Of a stretch of 64,000 bases of DNA, positions 4,154 through 61,040 are shown piece by piece (the stretch's first letter is position 1; each line of letters starts with the position of its first letter). The notes under the pieces are model-generated. The model ran no database searches. It had not been told where the DNA came from and worked only from the letters and a program-made list of their open reading frames with translations. The position numbers and the translations under genes are program-made. Source of the DNA: Patescibacteria group bacterium (lineage in GTDB: Bacteria; Patescibacteriota; Minisyncoccia; Phycocordibacterales; DATDWN01); assembly GCA_040384485.1 (NCBI GenBank), contig JAZKJH010000003.1, forward strand, positions 144,979-208,978. The letters are read 5' to 3'.

Positions 4154-6397
4154 TTAAGCAGTTGGTGTTGCAGGAGGGGTTTCTTTTGGTGCTGCAGCTT
4201 CTTCAGCTTTTGGCTTATCTGCATCAGACTCCTTAGCTTCTTCCTCTACTCTCTTCTTGGCCGCCTTCATGAGTTCTTCCATTGCTTTTTCTTCCTTACT
4301 CTTTCCTTGGAGAGCCTTTTTTGCAGCACTTGCAATTGCCCTTCTTTCACTCTGGTTTATTGGTGAGTTTGTAAGACCGGTTAATCCACCAATAAATTGA
4401 GCTGTACCCATAATACGTCCAGGATTAAGAGTTCTCTTTTCAACGGCTTCGACTCTATCAGTAAATACTTTCTTAAGCCTTGCAGCTTCAGATTTGTAGT
4501 TAGTTGCTTTGTTTTCCTCCGCCTTTTTAACAGCAGTCTCTGCGAGGGCAATATTTTCTCGCAATGTTTGCAAGCTATCTCTTTGTGACTTATTCCTGTT
4601 TTCTATTTGTTCTATTTGGTCTGCTATCTGCCTTCTCTCATCAGAATTTGTTGTTGATTGAAGGTTCATCCTCAACTCCTCTATTCTCGTCTCCCCTTCT
4701 TTTATAGATTTAGTTGCTGCTTTATTTTCTTCTTCCGCTTTCTTTTTTGCAGCCTCAGCAGCAGAGATTTCTGCATCAAATTTAGCCACTTCCACTTTGT
4801 CAGCGGCCTCCGCTTCCGCCTGCATATCCTCATTAGGTTTATATTTCTTAGCTGCTTCTTCAGCATCCTTTTTCTCCTTCTCCGCGATTGCCTTGAAGTT
4901 TAATTTCTTAGCGTCAGGAGCTTTGCCCATATCAACACCTGTTTGACTTATCAACGAAGACATTCCTGCTGAAGCTCTACCATCAAATGTGGCTGTTCTA
5001 GCTCTTTCTCCCCTATTCACTGTTATTTTCGCTAAGTTCCTTCCAACCAAACCTCCTGTTGCAGCTTTATCTTTCAAGTAATCACTGTTCGCTATCGCGT
5101 TACCTGCCCTTCCTATAGTGTTTCTACCAAGCGCTGCTGCACCTCCAAACACAGCTCCCCCAGCCAACTTACTTAATCGGCCAGTTGCTTGTCCAATAAG
5201 TTTTGAACCTTGGGTTGCAGAAGTTTTTGCCGTAATAAGGGTAAATATCGCTAAACCAATAATAATAGTGAAGTTAAAGAATAGAGATAGGAGGGACTGA
5301 GTTCCTATTGCCGCAGGACCTTGGGAAGCTCTAATAAAACCGTCACTAGAAAGCAGAGTAAGGACCACCCAGGTCATAAGCATAAACACTGGAGGAAAAA
5401 TGAGTTGTCCTTTCAAAGAGTCCCACCACTGGTTTGAGTAAGTTTTTATTGCTGGCAAGGCCATACCCATTATCGCAACAGGTGAAAGCATTAGTAATAC
5501 CAACAAAGTTACGTAACGGATTATAAAAAATATTGATATTGCAAAAAATACAAAAGAAGTAACTATAAACAGTATTGCACCCATAAGTTGTCCTACAAAC
5601 ACCTCCGGACCTGTACCGGCCACAGCAGCAAAAGTTTCACCTGAGTATATTTTATTCAAATCAAGTGCTTTCATGTACGCCACCGATAAACCAGAGATCG
5701 CCTCTCTGCTAGTATCACCCCCACCAGGTACAGAGAGTCTATCAGTTTCGTCCAATATGGCATTGTATAAGCCAATAGTTACTGCATTTGATGCGTCTAT
5801 CATAACTTTAGTGAAGAATAGTGAAAAGTTTACTAAGAGGGATGCAAGAACAAGAAAGCCCACAAACTTTTTCACATAATCTGTGCTAATCTGACCGATA
5901 ATCATCTGTATTCCATGCCAAACAAGCATGAATATAAAGACAATGTTTATCATGTCACGGATCAGTTTCCAGCCGGTATTTATACCTTCGAATTGATTAA
6001 TGCTGGTGGACATATCCATGATGGTTATATCCAAAACCATGTTCAATAAGCTTCCTGCCAGCCACAATATTCCAGAAGTTATACCAAGGATAAGTACACC
6101 AATACTTTCCAAGAAACAACCAAAAATCCATGTGGAAGGGCGGTAAAAAGTACAACCATCGCTAGGACCAGGCTGATTTGCCGCTCTCACCTCATTAACA
6201 GCTTCATCCGATCCGTCTTCGTCAAGTATGCATACCCAATTTGGGCCATCCAGGTCTCCATAGTTTACATATTTTCCAGGCTTGCCACCCTCGCCAGTAC
6301 AAGCCTGGCCGTTTACCTGGGCTAAGGAACTAGTAAAAGGAAAAAGTATTCCCGAAAAAACTATTCCTATAAAAATGTAACTGAAAAACTTTTTCAT
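4154..6397 (-). CDS. VirB6/TrbL-like polytopic membrane protein with a long C-terminal coiled-coil / KA-rich tail
   Basis: 747 aa; N-terminal signal/TM, then ~8 hydrophobic helices in the first ~430 aa, then an Ala/Lys/Glu-rich coiled-coil region. This architecture and its position next to a VirB4-like gene match VirB6-type channel subunits. Confidence 0.55.
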   Translation of the reverse strand: MKKFFSYIFIGIVFSGILFPFTSSLAQVNGQACTGEGGKPGKYVNYGDLDGPNWVCILDEDGSDEAVNEVRAANQPGPSDGCTFYRPSTWIFGCFLESIGVLILGITSGILWLAGSLLNMVLDITIMDMSTSINQFEGINTGWKLIRDMINIVFIFMLVWHGIQMIIGQISTDYVKKFVGFLVLASLLVNFSLFFTKVMIDASNAVTIGLYNAILDETDRLSVPGGGDTSREAISGLSVAYMKALDLNKIYSGETFAAVAGTGPEVFVGQLMGAILFIVTSFVFFAISIFFIIRYVTLLVLLMLSPVAIMGMALPAIKTYSNQWWDSLKGQLIFPPVFMLMTWVVLTLLSSDGFIRASQGPAAIGTQSLLSLFFNFTIIIGLAIFTLITAKTSATQGSKLIGQATGRLSKLAGGAVFGGAAALGRNTIGRAGNAIANSDYLKDKAATGGLVGRNLAKITVNRGERARTATFDGRASAGMSSLISQTGVDMGKAPDAKKLNFKAIAEKEKKDAEEAAKKYKPNEDMQAEAEAADKVEVAKFDAEISAAEAAKKKAEEENKAATKSIKEGETRIEELRMNLQSTTNSDERRQIADQIEQIENRNKSQRDSLQTLRENIALAETAVKKAEENKATNYKSEAARLKKVFTDRVEAVEKRTLNPGRIMGTAQFIGGLTGLTNSPINQSERRAIASAAKKALQGKSKEEKAMEELMKAAKKRVEEEAKESDADKPKAEEAAAPKETPPATPTA

Positions 6398-6400
6398 TTA

Positions 6401-9400
6401 TTATTTTTTACTAAAAGTTGCAACTCTCACTGTTGGGTTCCATGTGGCTACAGCATAATTTCCAGCACCATCTGTGGCTGCGTGAGGGGTGTGTGTTCTC
6501 TGATTCTCCCACAAGTTAAATTCTGATGACAGTGAGTTGTTGAATCTACCCACTACGCCATTATCGTCATGCGGTGTCACATCCGCTGCTACAGTTAAGT
6601 CCCCTGCATACCAAGAATTAAGTCCCCATGTTAATGCAGTTCTATCTGTATCAATCATTGTTACCACACCAGTAGACGATATTCTAGCTATTCCTGTTGG
6701 TAACCAATTTCGTATAAAAGTAGAAGACCCTCCAGTGAGTAGTCTTCTGTATACTTTGCTATCTGTACAGTTTGTACCTTCACATTTTTGCCATGCAATG
6801 TAGCCGTTCCCTACAGCCACTGGGTCATTGCCTACTGCAGGGCCAAGAGACTCTATTGAGTCAGTGCTTTTTTTCCATAACTTTATGTCTTCGCCGGATG
6901 ACTCCCCATCTCTAAATGCCAACCATAATGTGTTGCTACTGACTGTAAGTCTAGGGAATCCCCCAGCACCGGAATTTAGAGTAAATATTTTTTCTGTTTT
7001 TTGGTCACCGAGGTTTTTATCAAAACTAAAAAGATTAATAGCTAGATTGTTTGCACTTCGAAACGCGACATATAGTCTGTTTTGAAACCAAACAACATCA
7101 GGAAAAGAACCTACTCCCAAATCTTTATAATTTGGAGTTGAAATAGTTTGTGTCGATGCAACTGCGTTTCCTAGATTAGGAGCAAACCTTGTTATTCCAT
7201 ACTCGTAAGCTGATGTTGCAGAAAATGTTCCATCCGTGGTGTTGGCAGCTATGGTTGGCGAGAAGTTGCCGTAACCTCCTGCAAAAGCCACACCTTCAGA
7301 AACTTTTACTCCATTAGAGTTAAGTATTACAAAGGTATTTCCTGCATTGTGTGGGTTTTGCCCGATAGACGCGTACTGGTTGGACTTTGGGTTGTAAGCA
7401 AGGCTGTGCCCAGACGCTGCAGAGTTTAGGGTAATTGTCGAACCAGCCACACTACCATTACAACTAGTCATAAACTTCCCTTTTGCCCCGTTTGTTCCAG
7501 ACCAACCAACCAAGTATTTATTATTAACTGAGTTATATACAATACTCATCATTACCACAGTAGCGTTTGCTCCGGACTCTGAATACACTACAGTTTCTGG
7601 ACCAACTGTTCCTGTCAATGCATTGACAGTCCGTGCTCTGATAGAAGGGTTCCATGTAGCCGATGCTCCCGTGCCGGTGCTGTATCCTCTTTGGTATATA
7701 ACGCAGTATTCGTTCGTGCTCTCCTTTATTGCAACAGCAGGATCTCCTCTTCCATCGTCTTCAGCTACAGTAGAAAGAGAGCTTGTTAGGTTTATTCTCG
7801 GACCAACTTCTCCAGTCGTACTTATTGTTCTTAAATTAGAATGTCGTCCTGGTTTTACTGTCTGCCATACGTATACAAATTTTTTATTTTTTGAGTCGTA
7901 CTGCATAGGCGAGTTTGAATAAAACATTGAGGAGTCGTTTGGATAGCTAGTGTCAGAATGGACCAAGAAAGGACTACCAGAAAATGTTCCATCAGGGTTA
8001 ATAAAACGCCCCATAATATTTGAAGTTGTGGTTTTGTCACCATCATCCCAAGCTAACCAAACAACTAAATATTTGTTTATATCTTTTGAGTAAGCTACTT
8101 TTGGTCCTCCGGAATGCCCGCTTGTAATTGTTATTTGTCCCCCAACAGATGTTCCATCGTTGTTCATTATTTTCCCATATGTTCCGTTGGCAGATGTTCC
8201 TGCACTAACTACCAACCAGGTATTGTTGGTAGTGTTGTGTGCCAAGTTTCCACCCCAACCACCACTCGCGTTATATGAAGGAACAGTTGCTGTACCTCCC
8301 CCGCCACCACCAGGAGTGTTGGTTATCTGAATTAATTTACCATTCGAGAAAACCATTTCATTGGCAGGATTTCTTCCGATGTAAACTTTTACTGTTGCAT
8401 TTCCTACAGGAATACTGGTTGGAACTAAAGCAGTTGTTTGAGTTTTTGTGGAATTTACTGTTCCTGCAACAGACTCTCTGTTACCAGCACCATCAAAAAA
8501 CGAAACCTGATTTGTTAAGTCTGTTCCCGTTATTGTGATAGTTGTAGCTCCGGGTTTTGCAGACGAAGGCGAAACAGAGGTAATAAAAGCAGTTCCAGGG
8601 TTTGGATTGGTTTCCTCATCATCCCCACCATCTTCATCTTCTTCATCTGGTCCACCGGTACTTTCTCTACATCCACAATCATCCCCTCCACCTGCAGTAG
8701 TACAATCCATAGGAACAAATCCTTCAAAGTTTGTTTGACCCGCAGTCGCTATGGTCGCAGCTGCACCATTGATAGCGTCATACCTTTCCATGTATTCTTC
8801 TCCATCCCTCCATACAGCAATGATATCTCCCGTGGAAGGGTTATTGTTTCCATTCAGTACTTCGTCTGTGGCATTGAATCCTCTAGAAATAAGTTTTTCT
8901 TCTACAAGAGCTAGAAATCTTCTGGCATTCACTCTGCCACCCGATTCTATGTTTGGAAGGTCTGCTATGTCAGGATTTTCAGAAAGAACGGCATCCATAG
9001 CTGAACCCAAATCAGAGGCATACTTGTTTCCTGTGTCAGCACATTGACCGCCCGATGTACCAGGAACTTCATTCCCTATCCTACATCGCATAACACCAGT
9101 GTCGGGGTCAGTAAGACAAGTGAAAGTGTCCTCAGGATCGTTGACAGGCATTCTAATTGGTTGAGGTTCAGGGGCGTTTTGGAAGTCATCAATAAAGGAG
9201 TTTCCAGTCGAACCTGGTTGGCTCGTTCCTCGAAGTCCTCCTCCGTTTCCACTACCACCTACAACTCGTTCTATTAGTTGTCCAACTAACGCCCCTACAA
9301 TTTCTGTTATTTCATCGGCTGCTCCAAGTCTTTCCCAAGAAGAACCTAAACTTTTAGTAAGTTGCCCGTTGATTACTGATCCAGGAGTAACAACCTCTTT

Positions 9401-10144
9401 GGCATTAGGATCTTTATAACAATCACCCACTTCGTATCCAGCTGACAATAAATTTCCATAGTAACCTCGACTATTGTCATCCCCATCGAGCATTGCTTGA
9501 GTGATTACATACTCCTTTTTACATTTCTGAAACGACAAGAAACCACCACCCTGTTCTATTTGTTTATCTTTTTCTTCACCAGCCGCACTTACTCTCAATG
9601 ATAGTGAATTTTTTGCATCAAGATATGCCCCATAAGGGTTATTTTGACTTTTTTGAGTAATCTCAAACCACCCATCCCAACCACCCTTACTAAAGTCGTT
9701 CATAAACTCTTCGTAGTTGGCTTTTATTTTACTCAAACTACAGCTGTAATTTTCGCCACTTGTTTCTGAAAGATAATTTTTAACCAAAGCAAGTCTAACT
9801 TCTGCTTTGAAAGGAGCACACAACCGGTTTAGATTTGTATTGGATAGAAAAGAAGATGCTGTCTCATCCCCAACGTCCAAGAAAAATTGTTTTGGATCAG
9901 TTACATAACTAGGGTTTCCTTGGAATCCGGAGTTAATCCAATTTACTGTTTTTGCAGTAATCATTTTAAGGACTATTTGAGCAGCTGTGTATGCCAAAAA
10001 GTCACCAAAACCTTCTTTTGGAGCCTGAAACACATCGACATATTGAGCTTCAACCTTCTTCGGAGCAAAAGAAAAAAGCAGTGAGATTATAAAAAAAGAA
10101 AGTAGGGATTTTTTCCAAAAGTTTGATTGGGCGGAAAAAGACAT
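6401..10144 (-). CDS. Giant secreted protein (1247 aa): Cys-containing N-terminal domain, acidic Gly/Asp/Glu linker, IPT/TIG-like Ig domain, then beta-propeller-like repeats; candidate surface adhesin of the T4SS-like locus
   Basis: N-terminal signal peptide (LLSFFIISLLFSFAPKKVEAQ). TIG-like segment AFITSVSPSSAKPGATTITITGTDL. Repeated blade-like motifs (KYLVVWLAWDDGD, KFVYVWQTVKPG, KYLVGWSGTNG, LWLAFRDGE). Only 3 nt separate it from the VirB6-like gene. Confidence 0.7.
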   Translation of the reverse strand: MSFSAQSNFWKKSLLSFFIISLLFSFAPKKVEAQYVDVFQAPKEGFGDFLAYTAAQIVLKMITAKTVNWINSGFQGNPSYVTDPKQFFLDVGDETASSFLSNTNLNRLCAPFKAEVRLALVKNYLSETSGENYSCSLSKIKANYEEFMNDFSKGGWDGWFEITQKSQNNPYGAYLDAKNSLSLRVSAAGEEKDKQIEQGGGFLSFQKCKKEYVITQAMLDGDDNSRGYYGNLLSAGYEVGDCYKDPNAKEVVTPGSVINGQLTKSLGSSWERLGAADEITEIVGALVGQLIERVVGGSGNGGGLRGTSQPGSTGNSFIDDFQNAPEPQPIRMPVNDPEDTFTCLTDPDTGVMRCRIGNEVPGTSGGQCADTGNKYASDLGSAMDAVLSENPDIADLPNIESGGRVNARRFLALVEEKLISRGFNATDEVLNGNNNPSTGDIIAVWRDGEEYMERYDAINGAAATIATAGQTNFEGFVPMDCTTAGGGDDCGCRESTGGPDEEDEDGGDDEETNPNPGTAFITSVSPSSAKPGATTITITGTDLTNQVSFFDGAGNRESVAGTVNSTKTQTTALVPTSIPVGNATVKVYIGRNPANEMVFSNGKLIQITNTPGGGGGGTATVPSYNASGGWGGNLAHNTTNNTWLVVSAGTSANGTYGKIMNNDGTSVGGQITITSGHSGGPKVAYSKDINKYLVVWLAWDDGDKTTTSNIMGRFINPDGTFSGSPFLVHSDTSYPNDSSMFYSNSPMQYDSKNKKFVYVWQTVKPGRHSNLRTISTTGEVGPRINLTSSLSTVAEDDGRGDPAVAIKESTNEYCVIYQRGYSTGTGASATWNPSIRARTVNALTGTVGPETVVYSESGANATVVMMSIVYNSVNNKYLVGWSGTNGAKGKFMTSCNGSVAGSTITLNSAASGHSLAYNPKSNQYASIGQNPHNAGNTFVILNSNGVKVSEGVAFAGGYGNFSPTIAANTTDGTFSATSAYEYGITRFAPNLGNAVASTQTISTPNYKDLGVGSFPDVVWFQNRLYVAFRSANNLAINLFSFDKNLGDQKTEKIFTLNSGAGGFPRLTVSSNTLWLAFRDGESSGEDIKLWKKSTDSIESLGPAVGNDPVAVGNGYIAWQKCEGTNCTDSKVYRRLLTGGSSTFIRNWLPTGIARISSTGVVTMIDTDRTALTWGLNSWYAGDLTVAADVTPHDDNGVVGRFNNSLSSEFNLWENQRTHTPHAATDGAGNYAVATWNPTVRVATFSKK

Positions 10145-22794: not shown

Positions 22795-22895
22795 AAATTA
22801 AAAATTAAATATAAAAATAGCTATTAAATAAAACAAATATATAAAAATAATAATGCTTACTCCTAAATAATAACATAGAAACAAATAGATCGCGT

Positions 22896-22922
22896 TGAAC
22901 AAAACATCCCCTTTCGGGGAGT
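22896..22922 (-). terminator. rpsO terminator
   Basis: On the minus strand: hairpin TCCCCGAAAGGGGA followed by a U-rich tract, immediately after the rpsO stop. Confidence 0.65.
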
Positions 22923-22926
22923 TTTA

Positions 22927-23247
22927 TTATTTCTTTAGACCGAGTTTTTTGTTTAAAGCGTTGAATCTTCGAGGGTTTTTCTTCTCTAGGTATTTCATGT
23001 GTGCTTTTCTGTCCGCAACCATTTGTAGTAAACCTCTTCTTGAGTGGTTATCTTTTGCGTTTTTCTTTAGGTGAGAAGCTAGTTCGTCTATTCTTTTAGA
23101 CAAAATAGCGATTTGTACCTCTGGAGAACCAGTATCTGTGTCGTGTACCTGTGTTTCCTTGATTATTTTAGATTTTTTCGTTTTTGTAAGCATTGAATAG
23201 AGAATATCATACATCCATCTTTTTTGCAAGGGGCTATATTGAGCCAT
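22927..23247 (-). CDS. rpsO: 30S ribosomal protein S15 (true start probably at internal Met19, giving ~88 aa)
   Basis: Contains TGSPEVQIAILSKRIDELASHLKKNAKDNHSRRGLLQMV, a near-universal S15 core. Confidence 0.85.
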   Translation of the reverse strand: MAQYSPLQKRWMYDILYSMLTKTKKSKIIKETQVHDTDTGSPEVQIAILSKRIDELASHLKKNAKDNHSRRGLLQMVADRKAHMKYLEKKNPRRFNALNKKLGLKK

Positions 23248-23281
23248 TATCTCTTAAATCAAGAGATTTTAAGGATATTTT

Positions 23282-23310
23282 TTGACACCAATGGCTTATA
23301 ATGATATAAA
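23282..23310 (+). promoter_or_regulatory. Sigma70-like promoter (TTGACA, 17-nt spacer, TATAAA) driving the plus-strand island genes
   Basis: TTGACA at 23282-23287 and TATAAA at 23305-23310, followed by GGGAGG and a GTG start at 23331. Confidence 0.5.
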
Positions 23311-23330
23311 ACTACCGGGAGGTACACATA

Positions 23331-23720
23331 GTGTACAAATTGAATGTGTTGGGTCTTTTGAAGTCGAATATCGAAGCGGTACGTCACAAGGCTGCTCAGT
23401 GGGCCAAGTCAGCCCCTATCGAGGAGGTACTGAAGCATGTGCCTGGTGCGGTGTTCGGTCAGACCGTCGGACCGACCGAGGTGGATCAGAAGCAAAGGGC
23501 AAAACGGATTCTGACCAAGATCCGCGCCCGCGTAAGCGAAGTTGACGCCAAGCGCATCCGGACTGAACTGCAAGGGCTCAAGCCGAAAACGGAGGCCTAC
23601 AGCGAAAAACGCGACTCTTTATCCCGATCTCTGGGGTACACTCGTCGTCAGGTAGGTGCAGCTGCAACAGGTATTGAAAGGGCAGCTAAACGCAAAAAGG
23701 CTCAGCCGAAAAAGAAATAG
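23331..23720 (+). CDS. Hypothetical basic, helical protein (129 aa) encoded by the highest-GC stretch of the window; first gene of the putative integrated element
   Basis: GTG start 9 nt after GGGAGG; Lys/Arg-rich C-terminus (AAKRKKAQPKKK); GC content visibly much higher than flanking DNA. Confidence 0.4.
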   Translation: MYKLNVLGLLKSNIEAVRHKAAQWAKSAPIEEVLKHVPGAVFGQTVGPTEVDQKQRAKRILTKIRARVSEVDAKRIRTELQGLKPKTEAYSEKRDSLSRSLGYTRRQVGAAATGIERAAKRKKAQPKKK

Positions 23721-23816
23721 TTCGAACCAATACAAAGGTACCGCAAGGTACCTTTTCTTTATATATCAACACAAAGGGAATAGTGTCGCACAATATTATG
23801 TTACAATTTATACATA

Positions 23817-24794
23817 ATGGCTTCGCTTAAAGATTTAAAAACTCAGTTTCTAGAATACATAGAGATAGAACGAGGTCGCTCTCTTAAAACTGTAGAAAAT
23901 TATGACCGATACATATCTAGGTTTTTAGGATTTTTGAAAAACGATGACCCGACAACAATAACCGACTCATCTGTTCGCGAGTTCCGTCTGTGGCTCAACA
24001 GACAACCAAACTTGCCATGGAAAACTCTTTTGAAAAACTCCGGGGTTGTGAAAAACAGGGATATAGACAAAACTCTTTCCAAAAGAACCCAGAACTACTA
24101 CCTCATTGCTCTACGCGCTTTTCTCAAGTACCTTGCACGCCAAGGTGTAAAAAGCATGTCTGCTGAAAGAATAGAGCTGGCAAAAGTAAGTGAACGTTCG
24201 CTAGATTTGATAACTCCAAACGAAATGTCTAGACTTATGTCCGCTCCAAACGGAAGTGACCTCAAATCTCTTCGCGACAAAGCCATCCTCGAGCTACTTT
24301 TCTCAACAGGACTCCGTGTGTCTGAGTTGTGTTCCCTACCTAGAGATATGGATATCAACTCTGACGAGCTATCTATTCGAGGAAAAGGTGGCAAGGTCCG
24401 AGTAGTTTTCATATCTGATGAAGCTCGAAATGCTGTGAAGACGTACCTAGCAAAAAGAAAAGATATGGAGGATGCATTGTTTGTGCGAGTAGGACGAGAT
24501 GGAGAGAAAAAAGCTAGTAAAAAAGAAATCAGTACCAGTAGTGCTTTGAACAGACACTCTATAGAAAGAATAGTTCGCCACTATGCAACTAAGGCTGGTT
24601 TGTCGAAAAAAGTTACTCCCCACACCATGCGCCACTTGTTTGCAACAGATTTACTATCAAACGGAGCAGATATTCGCTCAGTCCAAGCACTACTAGGGCA
24701 TTCTAGTATCATAACTACACAGATATATACACATGTGACGGATAGACATCTGAAGGATATACACAAAAAGTTCCACGGCAAAAACAAACGATAA
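23817..24794 (+). CDS. Tyrosine site-specific recombinase (XerC/XerD-like integrase)
   Basis: N-terminal SAM-like core-binding domain; catalytic residues in order: R (LRVSEL), HTMRHLFATDLL, LLGHSSIITTQIYTHV (His-x-x-Arg ... Tyr). Confidence 0.85.
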   Translation: MASLKDLKTQFLEYIEIERGRSLKTVENYDRYISRFLGFLKNDDPTTITDSSVREFRLWLNRQPNLPWKTLLKNSGVVKNRDIDKTLSKRTQNYYLIALRAFLKYLARQGVKSMSAERIELAKVSERSLDLITPNEMSRLMSAPNGSDLKSLRDKAILELLFSTGLRVSELCSLPRDMDINSDELSIRGKGGKVRVVFISDEARNAVKTYLAKRKDMEDALFVRVGRDGEKKASKKEISTSSALNRHSIERIVRHYATKAGLSKKVTPHTMRHLFATDLLSNGADIRSVQALLGHSSIITTQIYTHVTDRHLKDIHKKFHGKNKR

Positions 24795-24844
24795 TATTGA
24801 CATATCAGTTTTTTAGTGTATTATCCAGAAAGGAGTAAATACAA

Positions 24845-25096
24845 ATGAGTGTTGTTCGTATGCATCGTGGTCGTGTTGTAAAAACACGACAAGTCATTAA
24901 CTTGAAACTACCAGGAACCTTCGGCGCTTTCACTGCTGATGACCTTGGGTGTGAGTTTGTAACTCAAGGTGTCAGAAACAAGTTGGTTCAGAACAGAGAC
25001 CAGCTTGCTGGACATGTTCTGGAAGGAAAAGATAAGGGCCGCTCCTTTATTTACCAACCACAACTGAAAGTATCCAATATCGTTCGGGAACCTTGA
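24845..25096 (+). CDS. Small cold-shock-domain-like / OB-fold protein (83 aa), divergent
   Basis: GRVVKT...GTFGAFTADDLGCEFVTQGV...LAGHVLEGKDKG parallels the CspA layout (GxVKWFN..GFGFI..DDG..VFVH...L.EGQ.V); followed by a terminator. Confidence 0.35.
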   Translation: MSVVRMHRGRVVKTRQVINLKLPGTFGAFTADDLGCEFVTQGVRNKLVQNRDQLAGHVLEGKDKGRSFIYQPQLKVSNIVREP

Positions 25097-25102
25097 ATAC
25101 TA

Positions 25103-25125
25103 CCTCGCATAAGCGAGGTTTTTTA
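25103..25125 (+). terminator. Rho-independent terminator
   Basis: CCTCGCATAAGCGAGGtttttt. Confidence 0.7.
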
Positions 25126-25196
25126 TATGTAGTTGACAGTACCTACCTGTTCATATATAAAACAATACAGAAACGGCTTTTGCGTGGGAGATTTAT

Positions 25197-25493
25197 ATGG
25201 GTTCAAGTGCAAGTTCGAGCGCGTTGCTGGGAAAAGGCCTTCAGGGTCGAGTGGTAGTCACGAAACCTCGTGGCACTGAGGGCACATTTGGGTATTTCAT
25301 ATTCCCGATCGATCTCGGAGCAAGGTTTCGATACAACGGTGTTTTGTTTCAAGTTGTTCATTTGCCCGGCGATGGGCGGGACACTATCGGGGCTCTCTGT
25401 CTCGAGGGTTCCGAAGCAAATTATGTACACCGGTTTACCGACACTGTGTCGATTACGGATGTTGCCCTGCATCATCCATTGAAACCACGATAG
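25197..25493 (+). CDS. Second small CSD-like / OB-fold protein (98 aa), a divergent paralog of the previous ORF
   Basis: GRVVVTKPRGTEGTFGYFIFPIDLGARFRYNGVLFQVVHLPGDG shares the same GTFG-centred layout; followed by a terminator. Confidence 0.35.
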   Translation: MGSSASSSALLGKGLQGRVVVTKPRGTEGTFGYFIFPIDLGARFRYNGVLFQVVHLPGDGRDTIGALCLEGSEANYVHRFTDTVSITDVALHHPLKPR

Positions 25494-25500
25494 AAGATAT

Positions 25501-25526
25501 CCGCCCCTCCGGGCGGATTTTATTTT
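25501..25526 (+). terminator. Rho-independent terminator
   Basis: CCGCCCCTCCGGGCGG followed by ATTTTATTTT. Confidence 0.7.
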
Positions 25527-25640
25527 GACAAAAGGTGTTATTCATTGACTTTGTGTATAAGTAATGTAGAGTAAAAAGGGAATGTAATTTGACTTTGGTT
25601 GTTTAAAACAACCGTTTAAATGGCTATCTAAGGAGGGTTT

Positions 25641-26291
25641 GTGGTAAAAGGAAAGCGAAGCCTGATTCCAGCCGTCATCACTCAAAGCAGGACCGAACTT
25701 GTACCTGGGAATGTACGAGTTAAGTCCATTGCTTTTAAGCTCCGATGGAGTGTGTACACCGTGATCAAAAGGGTGGAAAGCTCGCTGACTTCCAAGGTGG
25801 AGCAGGAAGTCTACCTCTTGATTGCCGGTGGTTATAGGATTCAGCCCGAATCCCTCCTGAAAATGCTTAAAGTTTTTAGAGGAGAGGATGGTTTGCGCCC
25901 TTGCGATCAGGAATATAACCAGGTCGGAAAGAACTTGTTTAAAAGCAAGTTTGACGATGTGGTTGAAAAAGTTGAACAGGCTCTTGTTCTGGTGGATAAA
26001 AGTTCTGATTCTGCTGACTACATGATGAGTATGGAGTCAGCTGCTCAACTGGTTGAGGCTTATGGTGGCCACTCAGAAGAAATTCTCGGAGAAATTGTGG
26101 AGAATCTGGCTGATGTGGCTAAATTGCTCAGAATCAAATCTGAAACACCACGAGTTATCGTGGGTGTGGCGATTAAGGTTTTGGTAAAGAAAATAACCGA
26201 CAGCTCTCAGGGGTCAACATTGCCTATGACGATTGAAGAAATGTTCAGTAGTCGAGGAAAGGAAGTAAAGAATAGAGGCTTCCGTGAGTGA
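25641..26291 (+). CDS. Hypothetical protein (216 aa), first gene of a two-gene module; its end overlaps the next gene by 8 nt
   Basis: Higher-GC ORF with no recognisable motif; translationally coupled to the J-domain protein gene. Confidence 0.5.
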   Translation: MVKGKRSLIPAVITQSRTELVPGNVRVKSIAFKLRWSVYTVIKRVESSLTSKVEQEVYLLIAGGYRIQPESLLKMLKVFRGEDGLRPCDQEYNQVGKNLFKSKFDDVVEKVEQALVLVDKSSDSADYMMSMESAAQLVEAYGGHSEEILGEIVENLADVAKLLRIKSETPRVIVGVAIKVLVKKITDSSQGSTLPMTIEEMFSSRGKEVKNRGFRE

Positions 26292-27447
26292 AACTTCCAG
26301 AAATCTAAGAAAGCGAATGGTTAATGAGTTTCCAAACGGGAACCCATTAGCTTTGATTGGTGTAGCAACTCAAGTGTTGGATTTGGGACTTACTGCTGAT
26401 GAGTTGTTTGACTACATCGTAAAAGATGTAGCCCGTCGACTCGTTATGAAGTTTCACCCAGACAGGTCCGTTCCTGAAAGCCAAACAGTAGACACTGAAC
26501 TTCAAAGGAAGTATTCAGAGGCTTACGAGCTTTTGAAAAACAGAACTACCTTTGACAGGGCTATGGCCGAGTTCAGAGCCTTGAGGTCCGAAGAGCGAAA
26601 CGAGACAAAACACTTGCGTCGAGCACTCGAAGATGCGCGAAAGAAGATTGAGCGCATCAGCTCAAAAGACAAGGAGTTGCTTTCGAGAGAGAGAAAACTC
26701 AGTGTCGATACCAGCAAGTTGGCCGAAGCTCGTGAGATTTTTTCCAAAGAGCAGCATGAGCAAAGCTTGATTGTTCCAAAACTTGAGAATCATATCGAAA
26801 GCATGAGTGATCGATATGAAAAAGCTCGGCTAGCATCCTCGTACCACAGAAAACTATTTGATGGACTTCATCGATACTTTTCCTATCTTGGCGACATAAA
26901 AGGCAGTCTCGGCACTCATGTTTTGGATGCAAGATGGGTGATGGTCGCTGTTTTACTTCCAAAGTTCAAGGCGAACAAAGTAATAAAGCCTGAGGACGAA
27001 GGAAAGTGGACGGAAGAATTCCTCAAATCTGTTGGGCACTTAGAGATTCCAGTGGAGACGCTGGAACAGGTTCTTGAGAGATGGATACAGATGCAGAAAA
27101 GTTTCTATAGTTTTCCAAACTTAGAAGCTACAAAATACCTGCATCCTAGACTGTGTGTAATGGAACTTTCTGGCGCAAAACCCAGACCGATCCTTGGACT
27201 AGATCATCCTGGCCCTGTCGGGCGGATTATTGGGTCAATACCCAATTCGCTGGAGCAGTTCGATTTGCTCAGTTTGAAGAATTTGGTTCCAAGAACGACT
27301 ATGTTCGAGGAAACCATACCGTTTGTAGTTGAGGGAGGACTTCTCGTTTCAACTATGTTTCTGAAAACTAGCAAATTTCATGCTAACGACCCTGGTGAAG
27401 CCCATTTTGCGAGAGAGACTCGCAGGCTCATCCTGGGAGTTGGATAG
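26284..27447 (+). CDS. J-domain (DnaJ-like, HPD motif) protein with a coiled-coil middle and a ~200-aa C-terminal domain of unknown function
   Basis: Residues ~35-95, DELFDYIVKDVARRLVMKFHPDRSVPESQ...RKYSEAYELLKNRTTFDRA, match helices II-IV of a J domain including the HPD tripeptide. Confidence 0.6.
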   Translation: MSETSRNLRKRMVNEFPNGNPLALIGVATQVLDLGLTADELFDYIVKDVARRLVMKFHPDRSVPESQTVDTELQRKYSEAYELLKNRTTFDRAMAEFRALRSEERNETKHLRRALEDARKKIERISSKDKELLSRERKLSVDTSKLAEAREIFSKEQHEQSLIVPKLENHIESMSDRYEKARLASSYHRKLFDGLHRYFSYLGDIKGSLGTHVLDARWVMVAVLLPKFKANKVIKPEDEGKWTEEFLKSVGHLEIPVETLEQVLERWIQMQKSFYSFPNLEATKYLHPRLCVMELSGAKPRPILGLDHPGPVGRIIGSIPNSLEQFDLLSLKNLVPRTTMFEETIPFVVEGGLLVSTMFLKTSKFHANDPGEAHFARETRRLILGVG

Positions 27448-27551
27448 TGGAATATAAAATATACACCGAATCGCATGGTCCTAATACGACTATCCGATTC
27501 GGTTTTTTTGTATTATCACTTTGGATTACCATTTGGTACAATTCTATTTAT

Positions 27552-28358
27552 ATGAAAATCATCAGTTGGAATTTAAACGGCATTCGTGCAGTACACAAAA
27601 AAGGTCTTTTTAACGAATTTATAGACAAACACAAGCCAGATATTGTTTGTTTTCAAGAAACAAAAGCCCAGGAGGAACAAAGTGAGGTTGATTTGCCAGA
27701 CTACACTGAGTATTGGAACTCCGCGGTGAAAAAAGGCTACAGTGGAACAGCCATTTTCCATAACAACAAAAACGGCCCCCTACCAATTTCCATAACTAAA
27801 GATTTTCCAGAGAAAATAGTAAAAAAATACAAACTAGAAGATAAGTATGGCGACCCGAACACAGAGGGTCGTGTGATAACTGCAGAATACGAAGATTTTT
27901 ATTTAGTCACTGTATATACTCCGAATGCCAAAGACGACTTGTCGCGAATCCCCCTACGACACCTTGGTTGGGATCCAGCTTTTCTAGAACATGTGCAAGA
28001 GTTAGATAAACACAAACCAGTTATTTTCTGCGGAGACTTAAACGTTGCCCATACTGAAGACGATCTTGCTCGACCGAAAGACAATGTTGGTAAAAAAGGT
28101 TTTACTGCTGAAGAGCGAGAAGGAATCCAGAAATTTATTGATGCAGGTTTTGTAGATACCTTTCGGATATTTAGGGAAGGCAACGGGCACTACACCTGGT
28201 GGAGTCATTTTGCTAACGCTCGCGAGCGCAATGTCGGCTGGAGAATAGACTACTTTTTTGTAAGTAAAAGAATAAAAAATAAAGTAAAAAAAGCAGAAAT
28301 ACTCCCAGAGGTTTTAGGTTCAGATCATTGCCCGGTAGTTATAGAGATAGATTTGTAA
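27552..28358 (+). CDS. xth: Exodeoxyribonuclease III (ExoIII/Xth AP endonuclease)
   Basis: MKIISWNLNGIRA start, FQETK, catalytic GDLNVAH and SDHCPV motifs; the annotated longer ORF (from 27447) probably has an N-terminal over-extension. Confidence 0.9.
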   Translation: MKIISWNLNGIRAVHKKGLFNEFIDKHKPDIVCFQETKAQEEQSEVDLPDYTEYWNSAVKKGYSGTAIFHNNKNGPLPISITKDFPEKIVKKYKLEDKYGDPNTEGRVITAEYEDFYLVTVYTPNAKDDLSRIPLRHLGWDPAFLEHVQELDKHKPVIFCGDLNVAHTEDDLARPKDNVGKKGFTAEEREGIQKFIDAGFVDTFRIFREGNGHYTWWSHFANARERNVGWRIDYFFVSKRIKNKVKKAEILPEVLGSDHCPVVIEIDL

Positions 28359-28359
28359 T

Positions 28360-28965
28360 TTATTCACTAATACCTCCAAACTGTATTTCCGGCAGAGTTA
28401 TCGAAGAAAACTTTTCATTGGCAACTTTAGGAATAGGTCTAGTAATATCTTTCATTTTTGGGCTATTCGGTTTTAAGGGTTCTTGCCCAATAACTTCCGT
28501 GTGTATATCCCCTCCTACAAAGCCGAGTGTGATGTGAAAATATCTAGAAGGTAATCCGATTTTTGCTCGGAACTCTTGTAATGCAGGAATATCCAATGCG
28601 ACAAAAGATGTTTTCTTTACTGTATCAACTTCTCTCATTTTAAATTCTTCTCCAGCTCCATCTATTACACCAATCCCTTGGATAGTTATTCCTTCGCCAT
28701 TCAGAATCTGTTTGTTTATCTCATTCAATTCTGCTAACTGCTCTTCAGTCAAAGTTGCCAGTACTTTTGACTCTGCCGGTCCAATAATAGTTAAGTGAAA
28801 ACCATCTTCCCTGGGTGCGAAATTTATTCCCGTTTGTTGCTTCAGCTCTTCCAAAGTCTGACCAAGGTCAGTTTTAATCTCCACTTCCAGAGATTTCATT
28901 TGCTGGATTTTTTCTAAAGTTAGCTCACTACTTTCTTCTGTTGGCATTGCATCGAGTTCTTTCAT
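28360..28965 (-). CDS. 2H phosphoesterase superfamily protein (LigT/ThpR-like), tentative
   Basis: Two H-x-T-x motifs flanked by hydrophobic residues (FHLTIIGP and FHITLGFVGG) about 85 residues apart. Confidence 0.4.
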   Translation of the reverse strand: MKELDAMPTEESSELTLEKIQQMKSLEVEIKTDLGQTLEELKQQTGINFAPREDGFHLTIIGPAESKVLATLTEEQLAELNEINKQILNGEGITIQGIGVIDGAGEEFKMREVDTVKKTSFVALDIPALQEFRAKIGLPSRYFHITLGFVGGDIHTEVIGQEPLKPNSPKMKDITRPIPKVANEKFSSITLPEIQFGGISE

Positions 28966-58975: not shown

Positions 58976-59192
58976 ATATAAGAACTATATTTTAGGCCAT
59001 ATTCCCAGCCATCATGCCTGTTTTTCTTTACCTTGACATAGGGAAAATTAAGTGCTAATATTTAGCATAACTACCTTATATTTCCTCTTCTAAAGTTTTT
59101 TACGTTTCGTAAAGGATTTTGGAAGGGGAAATTTTGTTCCCCGAGTTCTTTACATGGCCTTAAAAAAGAGGCCCTTAACAGAGGGAGAGTGG

Positions 59193-61040
59193 ATGAAAAA
59201 GTTGAGTGAGTTGAAGGAAACAATGATGACGTTGTTTCTGGCCACGAAGTATTCTTTGGCATTTTGCTGGAGGAACAGTCGCGGCGCCACAATGTTTCGG
59301 ATAGTGATCGCAGTTTGCACAACACTACTGATGTATCTTGGAATCCAGTCAAACGGGTTCATGATCAACAGCGTTCAAAACTCCATTGGAAAGTTCAGCC
59401 CCACGGACAGCTTTTATAAAGTGTTCGTGGAGGGGGGTATTTTATACCCAGTTCTTTTCATTAGTGGAGTGATCTTGTTTGGGATGTTCTTGAGCAGGTT
59501 CAACTGGTATTACAGAAGTAAGTGGAACCAGACTCTGCGTTTCGCAAACCAGCGAGAATTGAACAACCACCGAGCAACTCTAGATATTGCACGATTCAAA
59601 AGTAAGGAGTACGACGATTTGTCCAAACGAATCCAAGAACTCCCTACATCGTGGCAAACGAGAATTTGGTTTTCTGATGAGATGCTAAGTCTCTTCACAA
59701 CTTCAGTTTCGTTTGTTTTGTTCGGGGCGTCACTTTTGTGGTACAAACCCGTTTACGCACTCATCCTGGTGGTGACTTCGTTGCCGATGATGTTCACAGA
59801 GTTTCGACTCGGAGCATTGTGGTGGGGTCTGTTTGAAAAAATGGTCCCTCACAACAAAAAGCGCTCTGTCTTGGAACGACCGTATCATGGGCCCACAGCA
59901 TTTGCCCAAGCATTGATGTGGAATCAGATGTCGCCACTTCGTCGAAAGATTGATATCAATATCGGCGAGGTGGTGAATGAGTACGACAGCATCAGGTCTA
60001 CAGTCCTTAAAAAGGAGATTGTCACAAACTTCTTTGCTATTGCTGGCCTTTGCGGGATTCTGGTGAACGAGATTTTGTTTACCGTTACTCACGCGGGGCA
60101 GATCGGAACCTTCACGGTTATCTTTGCTGCAGCCAAGACATTTCAGGGTAACCTGGAGTCGATTGTCACAGTTATTGCTAACCAGTGGAATAATGCCAAA
60201 GGAGTCATTCTCATCGAGAAGGATTTCCTGGGGCTAAAACCGCTTGTCCAGACTGAATACCCAGTGGTGCCAAGTTTCGAAAACACGCCGAGGATTCGGT
60301 TCGAAGACGTCAAGTTCATTTACCCAGAGAGTGAGAACGAAGTACTCAGGGGAGTGAACTTTGTTATCGAGCCCGGTAGTAAAACGGTGATTCTCGGGAA
60401 AAGTGGTAATGGCAAATCAACCCTTCTTCATCTTTTGATGCGACAGTACGACCCCACCTCAGGCAACATCTTTGTAGGCGAAACAAACCTACGAAGCATT
60501 GAGCCCAATGTTTGGTCAAATGTGGTTTCTGCACTTATGCAGGAGTACACAGTGCTGGAACGCAAAATTGGGGAGGAGATAGCTTCTTCTCGACTGGATG
60601 AACCGGTTGATATGGATAGGGTAGCCGAGTCCGCTCGGTTCGCACACTTCGATGGAGTTGTGAGTTCGGATCCGGATGGATACGAGTCTCAGATCGGCGT
60701 TGATTTTGGTGGCAGGGATTTCTCGGGTGGTGAACGTCAACGCCTCGCGTTGGCTCGAGTTCATTATCGAGGGACACCTATCCTTATTCTGGATGAGCCA
60801 GATTCCAAGCTCGATGCCGAGTCAGCTCAGAAGGTTATCGACCAAGTCTTCGCACTTTCCGGAGTGACGGTCATCATGATCACACATCATGTTTCTCGCG
60901 CAGAGAGATGTGACAAAGTCATTGTGATGGGCGAAGGTCGAGTAGTCGAAGAGGGAACTCCCTCTGAACTTCTGGCTAAAGGCGAAATCTATGCCTCAAT
61001 GCTCCAAAAAGACAGAGAGCGCGCAGGTCTTAAGTCATAG
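59193..61040 (+). CDS. ABC transporter, fused permease/ATPase (exporter)
   Basis: TM domain followed by Walker A GKSGNGKST, signature FSGGERQRLALAR, Walker B ILILDEPDS. Start is chosen at the Met preceded by GAGGGAGAG; the longer ORF starts at 59154. Confidence 0.8.
   Translation: MKKLSELKETMMTLFLATKYSLAFCWRNSRGATMFRIVIAVCTTLLMYLGIQSNGFMINSVQNSIGKFSPTDSFYKVFVEGGILYPVLFISGVILFGMFLSRFNWYYRSKWNQTLRFANQRELNNHRATLDIARFKSKEYDDLSKRIQELPTSWQTRIWFSDEMLSLFTTSVSFVLFGASLLWYKPVYALILVVTSLPMMFTEFRLGALWWGLFEKMVPHNKKRSVLERPYHGPTAFAQALMWNQMSPLRRKIDINIGEVVNEYDSIRSTVLKKEIVTNFFAIAGLCGILVNEILFTVTHAGQIGTFTVIFAAAKTFQGNLESIVTVIANQWNNAKGVILIEKDFLGLKPLVQTEYPVVPSFENTPRIRFEDVKFIYPESENEVLRGVNFVIEPGSKTVILGKSGNGKSTLLHLLMRQYDPTSGNIFVGETNLRSIEPNVWSNVVSALMQEYTVLERKIGEEIASSRLDEPVDMDRVAESARFAHFDGVVSSDPDGYESQIGVDFGGRDFSGGERQRLALARVHYRGTPILILDEPDSKLDAESAQKVIDQVFALSGVTVIMITHHVSRAERCDKVIVMGEGRVVEEGTPSELLAKGEIYASMLQKDRERAGLKS

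Follow-up and report, generated by a model that had tools for sequence, protein, structure and literature searches.

A conserved Xer-type recombinase gene with lineage-specific accessory genes on both sides in a Patescibacteria genome

This study examined a stretch of 64,000 nucleotides from the assembly of a Patescibacteria group bacterium (GCA_040384485.1, contig JAZKJH010000003.1, positions 144,979 to 208,978 of the forward strand), hereafter called the window, and in particular its segment 23250-27450; all coordinates given without a locus name are those of the window. Our analysis indicates, with a probability of roughly 0.78, that this segment is composite: the conserved core gene xer, encoding a Xer-type tyrosine recombinase, remains in its ancestral slot between rpsO (ribosomal protein S15) and xth, and lineage-specific accessory blocks have been inserted on both sides of it. 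Block 1 consists of one open reading frame (ORF), ORF-A, in the rpsO-xer gap, and block 2 (2.75 kb, 24795-27548) lies between xer and xth and contains ORF-B, ORF-C, ORF-D and ORF-E; the source metagenome-assembled genome (Patescibacteria, class Paceibacteria) carries the locus tags V4690_02955 to V4690_02975 over the region from ORF-A to ORF-E. This interpretation rests on synteny, on the absence of the blocks from relatives, on the coding status and anatomy of the genes, and on the pattern of insertion hotspots, all of which are shown here; the biochemical roles of Xer, of ORF-A and of ORFs B to E, as well as the route by which the blocks were acquired, are inferred. An earlier note on this DNA had taken the whole segment for a small integrated mobile element or the remnant of one. 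The locus now appears largely ordinary, namely an accessory-gene islet at a chromosomal hotspot, which is a known kind of locus.

The xer gene (23817-24794, plus strand) encodes a chromosomal Xer-type tyrosine recombinase of 325 residues, identified by Pfam and by synteny. Its product matches Phage_integrase (E 7e-43) and carries an N-terminal SAM-like domain (Phage_int_SAM_1/4), and the catalytic residues of the Xer architecture are complete (R167, K190, H269, R272, H295 and Y304), so that the XerC/D-like recombinase with an intact catalytic set described in the earlier note was correctly recognized. A scan of one genome per GTDB species returned more than 401 relatives of xer, and the best 80 loci, 62-80% identical over the full length, were analyzed by placing 17 window proteins onto them by tblastn. 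Their labels include Paceibacterota, Nomura-, Zambryski-, Taylor- and Yonath-bacteria; the gap counts exclude L001 and L002, two copies of the contig from which the window comes.

In nearly all of the 80 loci, the gene order was ComM(-), DksA(-), p317(-), NYN(-), rpsO(-), xer(+), xth(+) and, later, CCA(-). In nearly all related loci rpsO precedes xer and points away from it, and xer lay between rpsO and xth wherever these neighbors were in view. The minimal gaps in the relatives were short, about 20-70 bp between rpsO and xer and about -6 to +50 bp between xer and xth, and in many species xer abuts or overlaps xth. Since the gene occupies the same rpsO/xth slot at 62-80% identity in nearly all of the 80 related loci, it is not an island integrase; its stable synteny across the lineage is that of a core gene, and xer is an ancestral housekeeping Xer. 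The core Xer, encoded next to rpsO in opposite orientation and immediately ahead of xth, would resolve chromosome dimers or catenanes at a dif-type site.

The accessory genes showed a different distribution, as no tblastn match to any of ORFs A to E was obtained in any of the 80 species loci. Both junctions beside xer are recurrent insertion hotspots across the class: the rpsO-xer gap exceeded 300 bp in 35 related loci (maximum about 5.5 kb) and the xer-xth gap did so in 34 (maximum about 2.8 kb), with the inserts beside xer in L006-L085 spanning 0.35-5.5 kb. These inserts were often GC-rich, at 0.45-0.55 in genomes of 0.36-0.42, and heterogeneous in content, including small proteins with two transmembrane helices, ORF6N-type DNA-binding proteins, methyltransferases and TrmB-like regulators. 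None of the inserted ORFs of the relatives was related to those of the window, and no known RNA family was found in the gaps of the 11 loci tested. The window is therefore one instance of a general pattern, in which xer is fixed and accessory genes vary on both sides.

Individual inserts illustrate this variety, for example those at 9571-10000 and 10919-11271 of L011, at 6108-10000 of L025, and at 4474-10000 and 10943-13292 of L057. Small ORFs with two transmembrane helices were inserted at 53-61% GC in genomes of 36-40% GC. In three species, an ORF6N-like gene (177-190 residues, a phage-associated DNA-binding type) lies between xer and a conserved motif at the xer promoter described below (L019 9466-9999, L020 9410-9982 and L044 9427-9990), and in a fourth species such a gene lies just downstream of xer (L057 10952-11494).

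The base composition of the segment is uneven. Against a window mean of 39.1%, sliding GC showed a sharp peak of 48-52% at 23.2-23.8 kb, values of about 39-44% over 23.6-25.0 kb, and a plateau of 43-47% at 25.0-27.4 kb. By gene, GC and GC at third codon positions (GC3) were 53.8% and 0.58 in ORF-A (23331-23720), 44% and 0.36 in ORF-B, 51% and 0.48 in ORF-C, 45% and 0.47 in ORF-D, and 45% and 0.45 in ORF-E, compared with 41.2% and 0.37 in xer (23817-24794) and a GC of 39% in xth, the GC3 of background genes being about 0.25-0.40; the whole xer-xth insert had a GC of 43.9%. Both measures were thus raised in ORFs A, C, D and E and not in xer or ORF-B. Because xer is at background GC and GC3, the rise is real but patchy, and the recombinase lies outside it. 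The GC of well over 50% noted earlier by eye at 23330-23720 is borne out by ORF-A, and the rise that had been read as running from about 23330 through about 27450 exists in four of the genes and is not continuous. The strongest compositional outlier of the window lies elsewhere: a gene for an ABC-type ATPase of 628 residues (59154-61040, plus strand; GC3 0.54, tetranucleotide z = 4.2) is more atypical than any part of the segment studied here.

Block 1 is a self-contained gene. ORF-A (23331-23720, plus strand, V4690_02955) encodes a basic, all-helical orphan protein of 129 residues from a GTG start, preceded by a GGGAGG ribosome-binding site (23317-23322) and followed by an intrinsic terminator (23734-23755, plus strand) with a nine-pair stem and a T run. 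The near-consensus promoter proposed for the start of the segment was confirmed by reading the sequence, with TTGACA at 23282-23287, a spacer of 17 nt and TATAAA at 23305-23310 (23282-23310, plus strand); a consensus promoter scan missed it since its -10 box ends in A. The sole homologue, P0002, is 70% identical and occupies the same slot on a related metagenomic contig, L003, where the order is rpsO, a membrane ORF of 85 residues, ORF-A and xer. L003 is close to the window, with identities of 97% for NYN, 92% for ComM and 92% for the N-terminal part of xer. Between the two copies of ORF-A, the differences at the three codon positions number 30, 22 and 86, with 58 synonymous and 37 non-synonymous codon changes; because of this third-position-biased divergence, ORF-A is regarded as a protein gene under selection. 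It had no match in Pfam, NCBIfam, PHROG, PADLOC or the PDB, and its AlphaFold2 (AF2) model, which is helical (predicted local distance difference test, pLDDT, 67.6), had no significant fold match in the PDB (best Foldseek E 0.96). Two annotations disagree on the frame: Logan calls an ORF of 84 residues in another frame at 23282-23545 on the plus strand (L002 7551-7805), and NCBI calls a frame of 126 residues. Only the latter frame, of 126 or 129 residues, is backed by conservation and by the codon-position pattern.

That disagreement, together with a sharp GC peak that has its own promoter and terminator in an AT-rich genome, could be taken to mean that the 390 nt of the peak (23331-23720) form a structured non-coding RNA gene and not a protein gene. 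We consider this extremely improbable, as Rfam gave no match at the peak either at gathering thresholds or at E <= 1, the RNAfold z-score against shuffled sequence was only -1.0, a strong ribosome-binding site precedes the ORF-A start, and the conservation of the 129-residue frame in L003 is of the kind expected of a coding sequence.

Block 2 contains three predicted transcription units. The ORF-B unit (24797-25119, plus strand) comprises a TTGACA-16-TATTAT promoter (24797-24824), an ORF of 83 residues (24845-25096, V4690_02965) and a terminator (25102-25119); the ORF-C unit (25133-25518, plus strand) comprises a promoter-like TTGACA-17-TATAAA (25133-25161), an ORF of 98 residues (25197-25493) and a terminator (25499-25518), and each ORF has a ribosome-binding site. 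The two proteins are weak paralogues (29% identity, E 3e-5) and had no relatives beyond each other among 5.8 billion protein clusters. The earlier note had described them as cold-shock-domain-like ORFs with terminators; the terminators are present at the positions given, and the cold-shock identity was rejected, as neither protein had a Pfam match at E <= 10 and hhalign of the ORF-B and ORF-C profile against Escherichia coli CspA gave a probability of 0.03%. An RNA gene at 25097-25178 was rejected as well: the matches there to Chlorobi-1 (20.5 bits) and to the Leu leader (19.2 bits) were far below gathering and correspond to the terminator hairpin of ORF-B and the AT-rich promoter of ORF-C. 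At gathering thresholds, Rfam found only tRNAs over the window, all of them elsewhere.

The third unit is the translationally coupled pair of ORF-D and ORF-E, and this coupling, already seen in the earlier note, was upheld: the two ORFs overlap by 8 nt (26284-26291), and overlap or abutment is kept in homologues. ORF-D (25641-26291, plus strand), with a promoter-like site at 25545-25572, encodes 216 residues and belongs to an uncharacterized, helical family of 97 representative clusters at E <= 1e-3 (55 at E <= 1e-10). Searches of PDB sequences with ORF-D and its family profile gave noise only, and a Pfam scan of 51 members revealed no consistent domain. ORF-E (26284-27447, plus strand, V4690_02975) encodes 387 residues consisting of a J-like N-terminal domain, a long coiled-coil helix of about 115 residues (about 87-202) and a C-terminal domain; it had three non-self homologues. 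Its AF2 model (pLDDT 58.6) is poor beyond the helices, the C-terminal domain included. PHROG and PADLOC searches with the cargo genes gave nothing except a marginal coiled-coil match of ORF-E to JetC (E 0.0086), and viral contigs held no relatives of ORF-A or ORF-E.

Regarding the function of this pair, 13 of the 15 best PDB matches of ORF-E were J-domains (E 0.016-1), aligned to residues 34-95 across the HPD motif. This stretch (about 34-95) aligns with helices II and III, HPD included, of J-domain proteins such as DnaJ, CbpA and DjlA. Unlike DnaJ-type proteins, ORF-E lacks a glycine/phenylalanine-rich region, a zinc finger and the DnaJ C-terminal domain; it carries instead the long helix (about 115 residues) and an uncharacterized C-terminal domain, and it is always paired with ORF-D. 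By its sequence, ORF-E looks like a J-domain co-chaperone adaptor, built from a J-like domain, then a coiled coil, then a C-terminal domain that varies; it may bring DnaK/Hsp70 to ORF-D, its partner, or to some client protein. Two results weigh against the J-domain assignment: the Pfam DnaJ match is sub-threshold (E 2.2e-3, 18.5 bits against a cutoff of 27.8), and HPD, although kept in the ORF-E of the window and of L086, is replaced by HSD or HTD in the homologues P0005 and P0006.

The pair occurs together in other contexts. An ORF-D homologue adjoins an ORF-E homologue in L004, L005, L086, L087 and L088, and on a Joint Genome Institute (JGI) contig a gene of 229 residues at the ORF-D position beside an ORF-E homologue is a putative ORF-D. 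The pair follows trmD in L004 and in the JGI contig, and it stands beside a gene for a RecB-like nuclease in L086. The closest D-E relative, L005, has 76.7% DNA identity and carries an asparagine-synthase-like gene downstream, not xth. In L004, the GC of the pair was 52% against 41% in its neighbor; in L086 it was not raised (40%). The contigs that carry the homologues have 40-50% GC, in keeping with a GC-richer donor.

Taking these data together, we propose that block 1 would have entered the rpsO-xer gap as a self-contained ORF-A cassette before the split from L003, and that block 2 would have brought its three transcription units, the monocistronic ORF-B and ORF-C and the coupled D-E pair, into the xer-xth junction. 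The blocks probably arrived horizontally from GC-richer Patescibacteria by illegitimate or homology-assisted recombination, with the resident Xer probably uninvolved in their insertion. No att sites, transposase or phage genes were visible that would show the route of arrival. In a repeat search of 22800-28600, no direct or inverted pair bracketed 23.25-27.55 kb or either block beyond short matches at chance level, and the check for direct repeats at the boundaries that the earlier note had proposed thus found none; the right boundary itself is at 27548, xth starting at 27549, and not near 27450.

The history of the xer allele appears more complicated than that of its position. The window xer is closest to those of L006-L009 (75-80%), whose flanking genes are distant (rpsO about 61%, NYN about 72%), and the clade closest in its flanks (for example L014, L015, L020 and L051; rpsO about 80-85%, NYN about 85%, ComM about 78%) is yet only 68-73% identical in xer. 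In neighbor-joining (NJ) bootstraps, the window xer was sister to L006/L008/L009 in 40 of 40 replicates, and NYN plus rpsO placed the window in the other clade, also in 40 of 40. Within the gene, residues 1-259 grouped with L006-L009 in 100 of 100 NJ replicates, residues 260-325 joined the flank clade in 94 of 100, and the support was ambiguous (33 vs 37) for the conserved N-terminal core once its two variable loops were removed. An insertion of 12 residues, NLPWKTLLKNSG (residues 65-76), is common only to the window, L003 and L006-L009. The partitions of xer were picked after inspection of the data, and because of this post hoc choice the mosaic is suggestive and not proven. The pattern is suggestive of inter-lineage recombination or gene conversion inside xer before the split of the window and L003, possibly at the time when ORF-A was acquired. 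Parts of the allele may not be ancestral, but the place of xer in the chromosome is.

A short conserved motif was observed at the xer promoter. In the window, TGTCGCACAATATT (23784-23797, plus strand) is followed after 4 nt by the TACAAT -10 box (23802-23807). In the aligned short gaps of the relatives, (A)TGTCGCACAATATT(t) either directly precedes the -10 box of xer or, in five loci, overlaps the ATG of the gene. In 57 of 85 loci the exact 11-mer is present as a single copy, in one orientation or the other and invariably at the promoter or start of xer; at up to two mismatches the motif is found in 68 of 80 loci (37 in minus and 31 in plus orientation), and the position upstream of xer is the same in L003 and across L007-L085. 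The alignment has about 15 informative positions and no conserved partner arm. The 64-kb window holds one exact copy, with matches at three mismatches at chance level, and neither a second copy nor a dif-like partner arm was found in the window or at the insert borders. Full inverted sites, AATATTGTGCRAC-N8-10-GTYGCACAATATT, lie upstream of xer in six loci (L011, L021, L029, L041, L042 and L044), compared with none in 20 shuffles, and an inverted 13-8-13 layout is the core-site architecture of tyrosine recombinases. The motif is most likely a predicted Xer-binding or autoregulatory site; an operator for Xer or for a repressor is at least as likely as the dif of a hotspot used by integrative mobile elements exploiting Xer (IMEX).

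The possibility that one mobile element of about 23.3-27.45 kb inserted itself with its cargo between rpsO and xth by its own tyrosine integrase, as the earlier note had it, draws on the raised GC over parts of the segment, on the intact catalytic set, on the matches of xer to phage integrase PHROGs and on the orphan cargo genes. Islands with tyrosine integrases likewise show a tyrosine recombinase beside orphan genes of atypical GC. Unlike in such islands, the recombinase of the window is a syntenic core gene found in the same place, with rpsO and xth as neighbors, in about 80 species, and att repeats, a tRNA target and an excisionase are all missing. The abutment or overlap of xer and xth in many species means that xer is no insert there; xer is also of background composition, and the cargo is split into two separate blocks around it. 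Conserved synteny across relatives was what the earlier note had itself named as a sign of ancestral DNA, and for xer this is what was found in the 80 loci, which makes a single mobile element very improbable. The description of an acquired cargo of unknown function remains fair for the genes other than xer, because they are lineage-specific and have somewhat raised GC, and the D-E pair is found elsewhere in differing contexts; they do not form one element with xer. An integron platform was ruled out, as the score of xer in the integron integrase subfamily of NCBIfam (132.3) is under the cutoff of 265 and the ORFs, each with its own promoter and terminator, are not separated by attC-like inverted repeats that recur.

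At the other extreme, nothing may have been acquired, the genes being ancestral and lost from the relatives, with their GC explained by amino-acid composition or expression level. The GC-normalized dinucleotide signature is indeed not deviant, ORF-A is syntenic in L003, and the promoters, ribosome-binding sites and terminators look native. This explanation is nonetheless quite improbable, since none of the 80 species loci, those of the window's own clade among them, has ORFs B to E at the xer-xth junction, the D-E pair occurs in three other genomic contexts, and GC3, beyond GC at the first and second positions, is up in ORFs A, C, D and E. Alternatively, the host Xer may drive the hotspot in the style of IMEX or of XerS/difSL, with the promoter motif as dif and the flanking genes, ORF-A and ORFs B to E included, integrated there. 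In streptococci, xerS and difSL are immediate neighbors and work as a single module, and dif is also where IMEX elements integrate (PMC5357621). These precedents, the 13-nt arm kept at the xer promoter in both orientations in about 68 of 80 loci, the full inverted sites of six species, and the recurrent inserts at both junctions speak for it. Most loci, the window included, have however a single arm without a conserved partner; no second arm or degenerate site lies beside ORF-A or the block of ORFs B to E, block 2 lies beyond xer, roughly 1 kb downstream of the motif, and the full site was not found in viral contigs. In addition, the genes diverge at the locus and GC skew follows gene strand only, so there is no terminus signature, and an operator fits equally well with a motif placed right against the -10 box or across the start codon. 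Like sites used by IMEX-type elements, the window has accessory DNA beside a candidate Xer site and lacks an integrase specific to that DNA; unlike them, no dif-like site is doubled at its insert borders, no demonstrated dif adjoins, and no phage or conjugation genes are present. Insertion driven by Xer is for these reasons unlikely.

Several of our data weigh against parts of the composite interpretation that we prefer. Concerning transfer, the tetranucleotide distance peaks at only z ~2.0 (26.0-27.5 kb), a modest sign, and the dinucleotide signature is unremarkable (z < 1.2), so that the k-mer comparison put forward in the earlier note gives little for the segment, with a stronger outlier at 59.5-61 kb. 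The GC of ORF-A is high in both genomes despite saturated synonymous divergence, and selection may account for it instead of a foreign origin. The contig of L003, the closest relative, ends inside xer, and block 2 may predate or postdate the split from it. The phylogeny of xer is incongruent with that of its neighbors, and part of xer may have come with ORF-A. Concerning the role as dimer resolvase, which is assigned by family membership alone, xer passes the XerA_Arch model of NCBIfam marginally (224.8, cutoff 220) and stays under the cutoffs of XerD (236.3, cutoff 329.6) and XerC (227.4, cutoff 335).

Single-recombinase Xer systems are the closest known counterparts, namely XerA/dif of archaea, XerS/difSL of streptococci and lactococci, and XerH/difH of epsilon-proteobacteria. 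The window likewise encodes one Xer-like recombinase, which combines SAM-like and catalytic domains with the full RKHRHY set and marginally exceeds the XerA equivalog cutoff; as in these systems, xer of the window type is a core gene across the whole class, and as in xerS-difSL, a site like a recombinase arm lies directly beside it. In contrast to single-recombinase Xer/dif systems, most Paceibacteria loci have one 13-nt arm, in either orientation, overlapping the promoter; the window xer is under the XerC and XerD cutoffs (and, with 106.8, under the XerS cutoff of 267), no terminus signature is seen, and the site is known here from its sequence alone. For a cognate dif, the window showed neither a partner arm nor a terminus signal, and a word-based search of the literature turned up no paper linking Xer/dif sites to Patescibacteria (candidate phyla radiation, CPR). 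One might still suppose, though we rate it as rather unlikely, that Paceibacteria use a compact XerS-like module of xer and site, with the arm GTCGCACAATATT and, in some species, the full site AATATTGTGCRAC-N8-GTYGCACAATATT, and that the junctions serve as a recombinase-associated platform for cassette capture. GC-rich cassettes such as ORF-A and ORFs B to E would then have been repeatedly integrated and swapped between lineages, and the mosaic xer would be explained.

The two flanking genes delimit the segment. On the left, rpsO (22927-23247, minus strand; Pfam Ribosomal_S15, E 3.9e-30) is the ancestral neighbor. About 18 codons at the N-terminal end of its ORF of 106 residues are probably spurious, the likely start being the internal Met (MLTKTKK) at about 23193; the Pfam match begins at residue 25. 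A palindromic TTGCAA, resembling the -35 box of rpsO, is kept in the short rpsO-xer gaps of the relatives. On the right, a terminator-like hairpin with a T run follows ORF-E (27464-27510, plus strand; RNAfold -20.2 kcal/mol, then TTTTTTT), and the promoter scan placed a TG-extended xth promoter at 27513-27542 (plus strand). The ancestral right neighbor xth (27549-28358, plus strand; NCBIfam xth, 1e-82) starts at 27549, as all homologues start with MKI(I/L)SWN (here MKIISWN), and a longer xth ORF from 27447 was rejected as an artefact. The identity of xth to that of the window is bimodal in L006-L085, at 38-46% or 60-78% in the same syntenic position, and does not track the clades of the flanking genes, which suggests two xth types replacing each other.

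The first proposal amounted to a new, small mobile element in a CPR bacterium that has not been cultivated, and it does not hold. For annotation, the result implies that housekeeping Xer-family recombinases in Patescibacteria should not be taken for island integrases. For CPR bacteria, where the Xer site or operator has yet to be described, the motif at the xer promoter provides a concrete candidate. The D-E pair, an uncharacterized but conserved combination of a J-like protein and its partner, could be a specialized Hsp70-adaptor module in organisms with minimal proteostasis machinery. Finally, across this class of ultra-small bacteria, orphan accessory genes rich in GC have repeatedly landed at the junctions beside xer.

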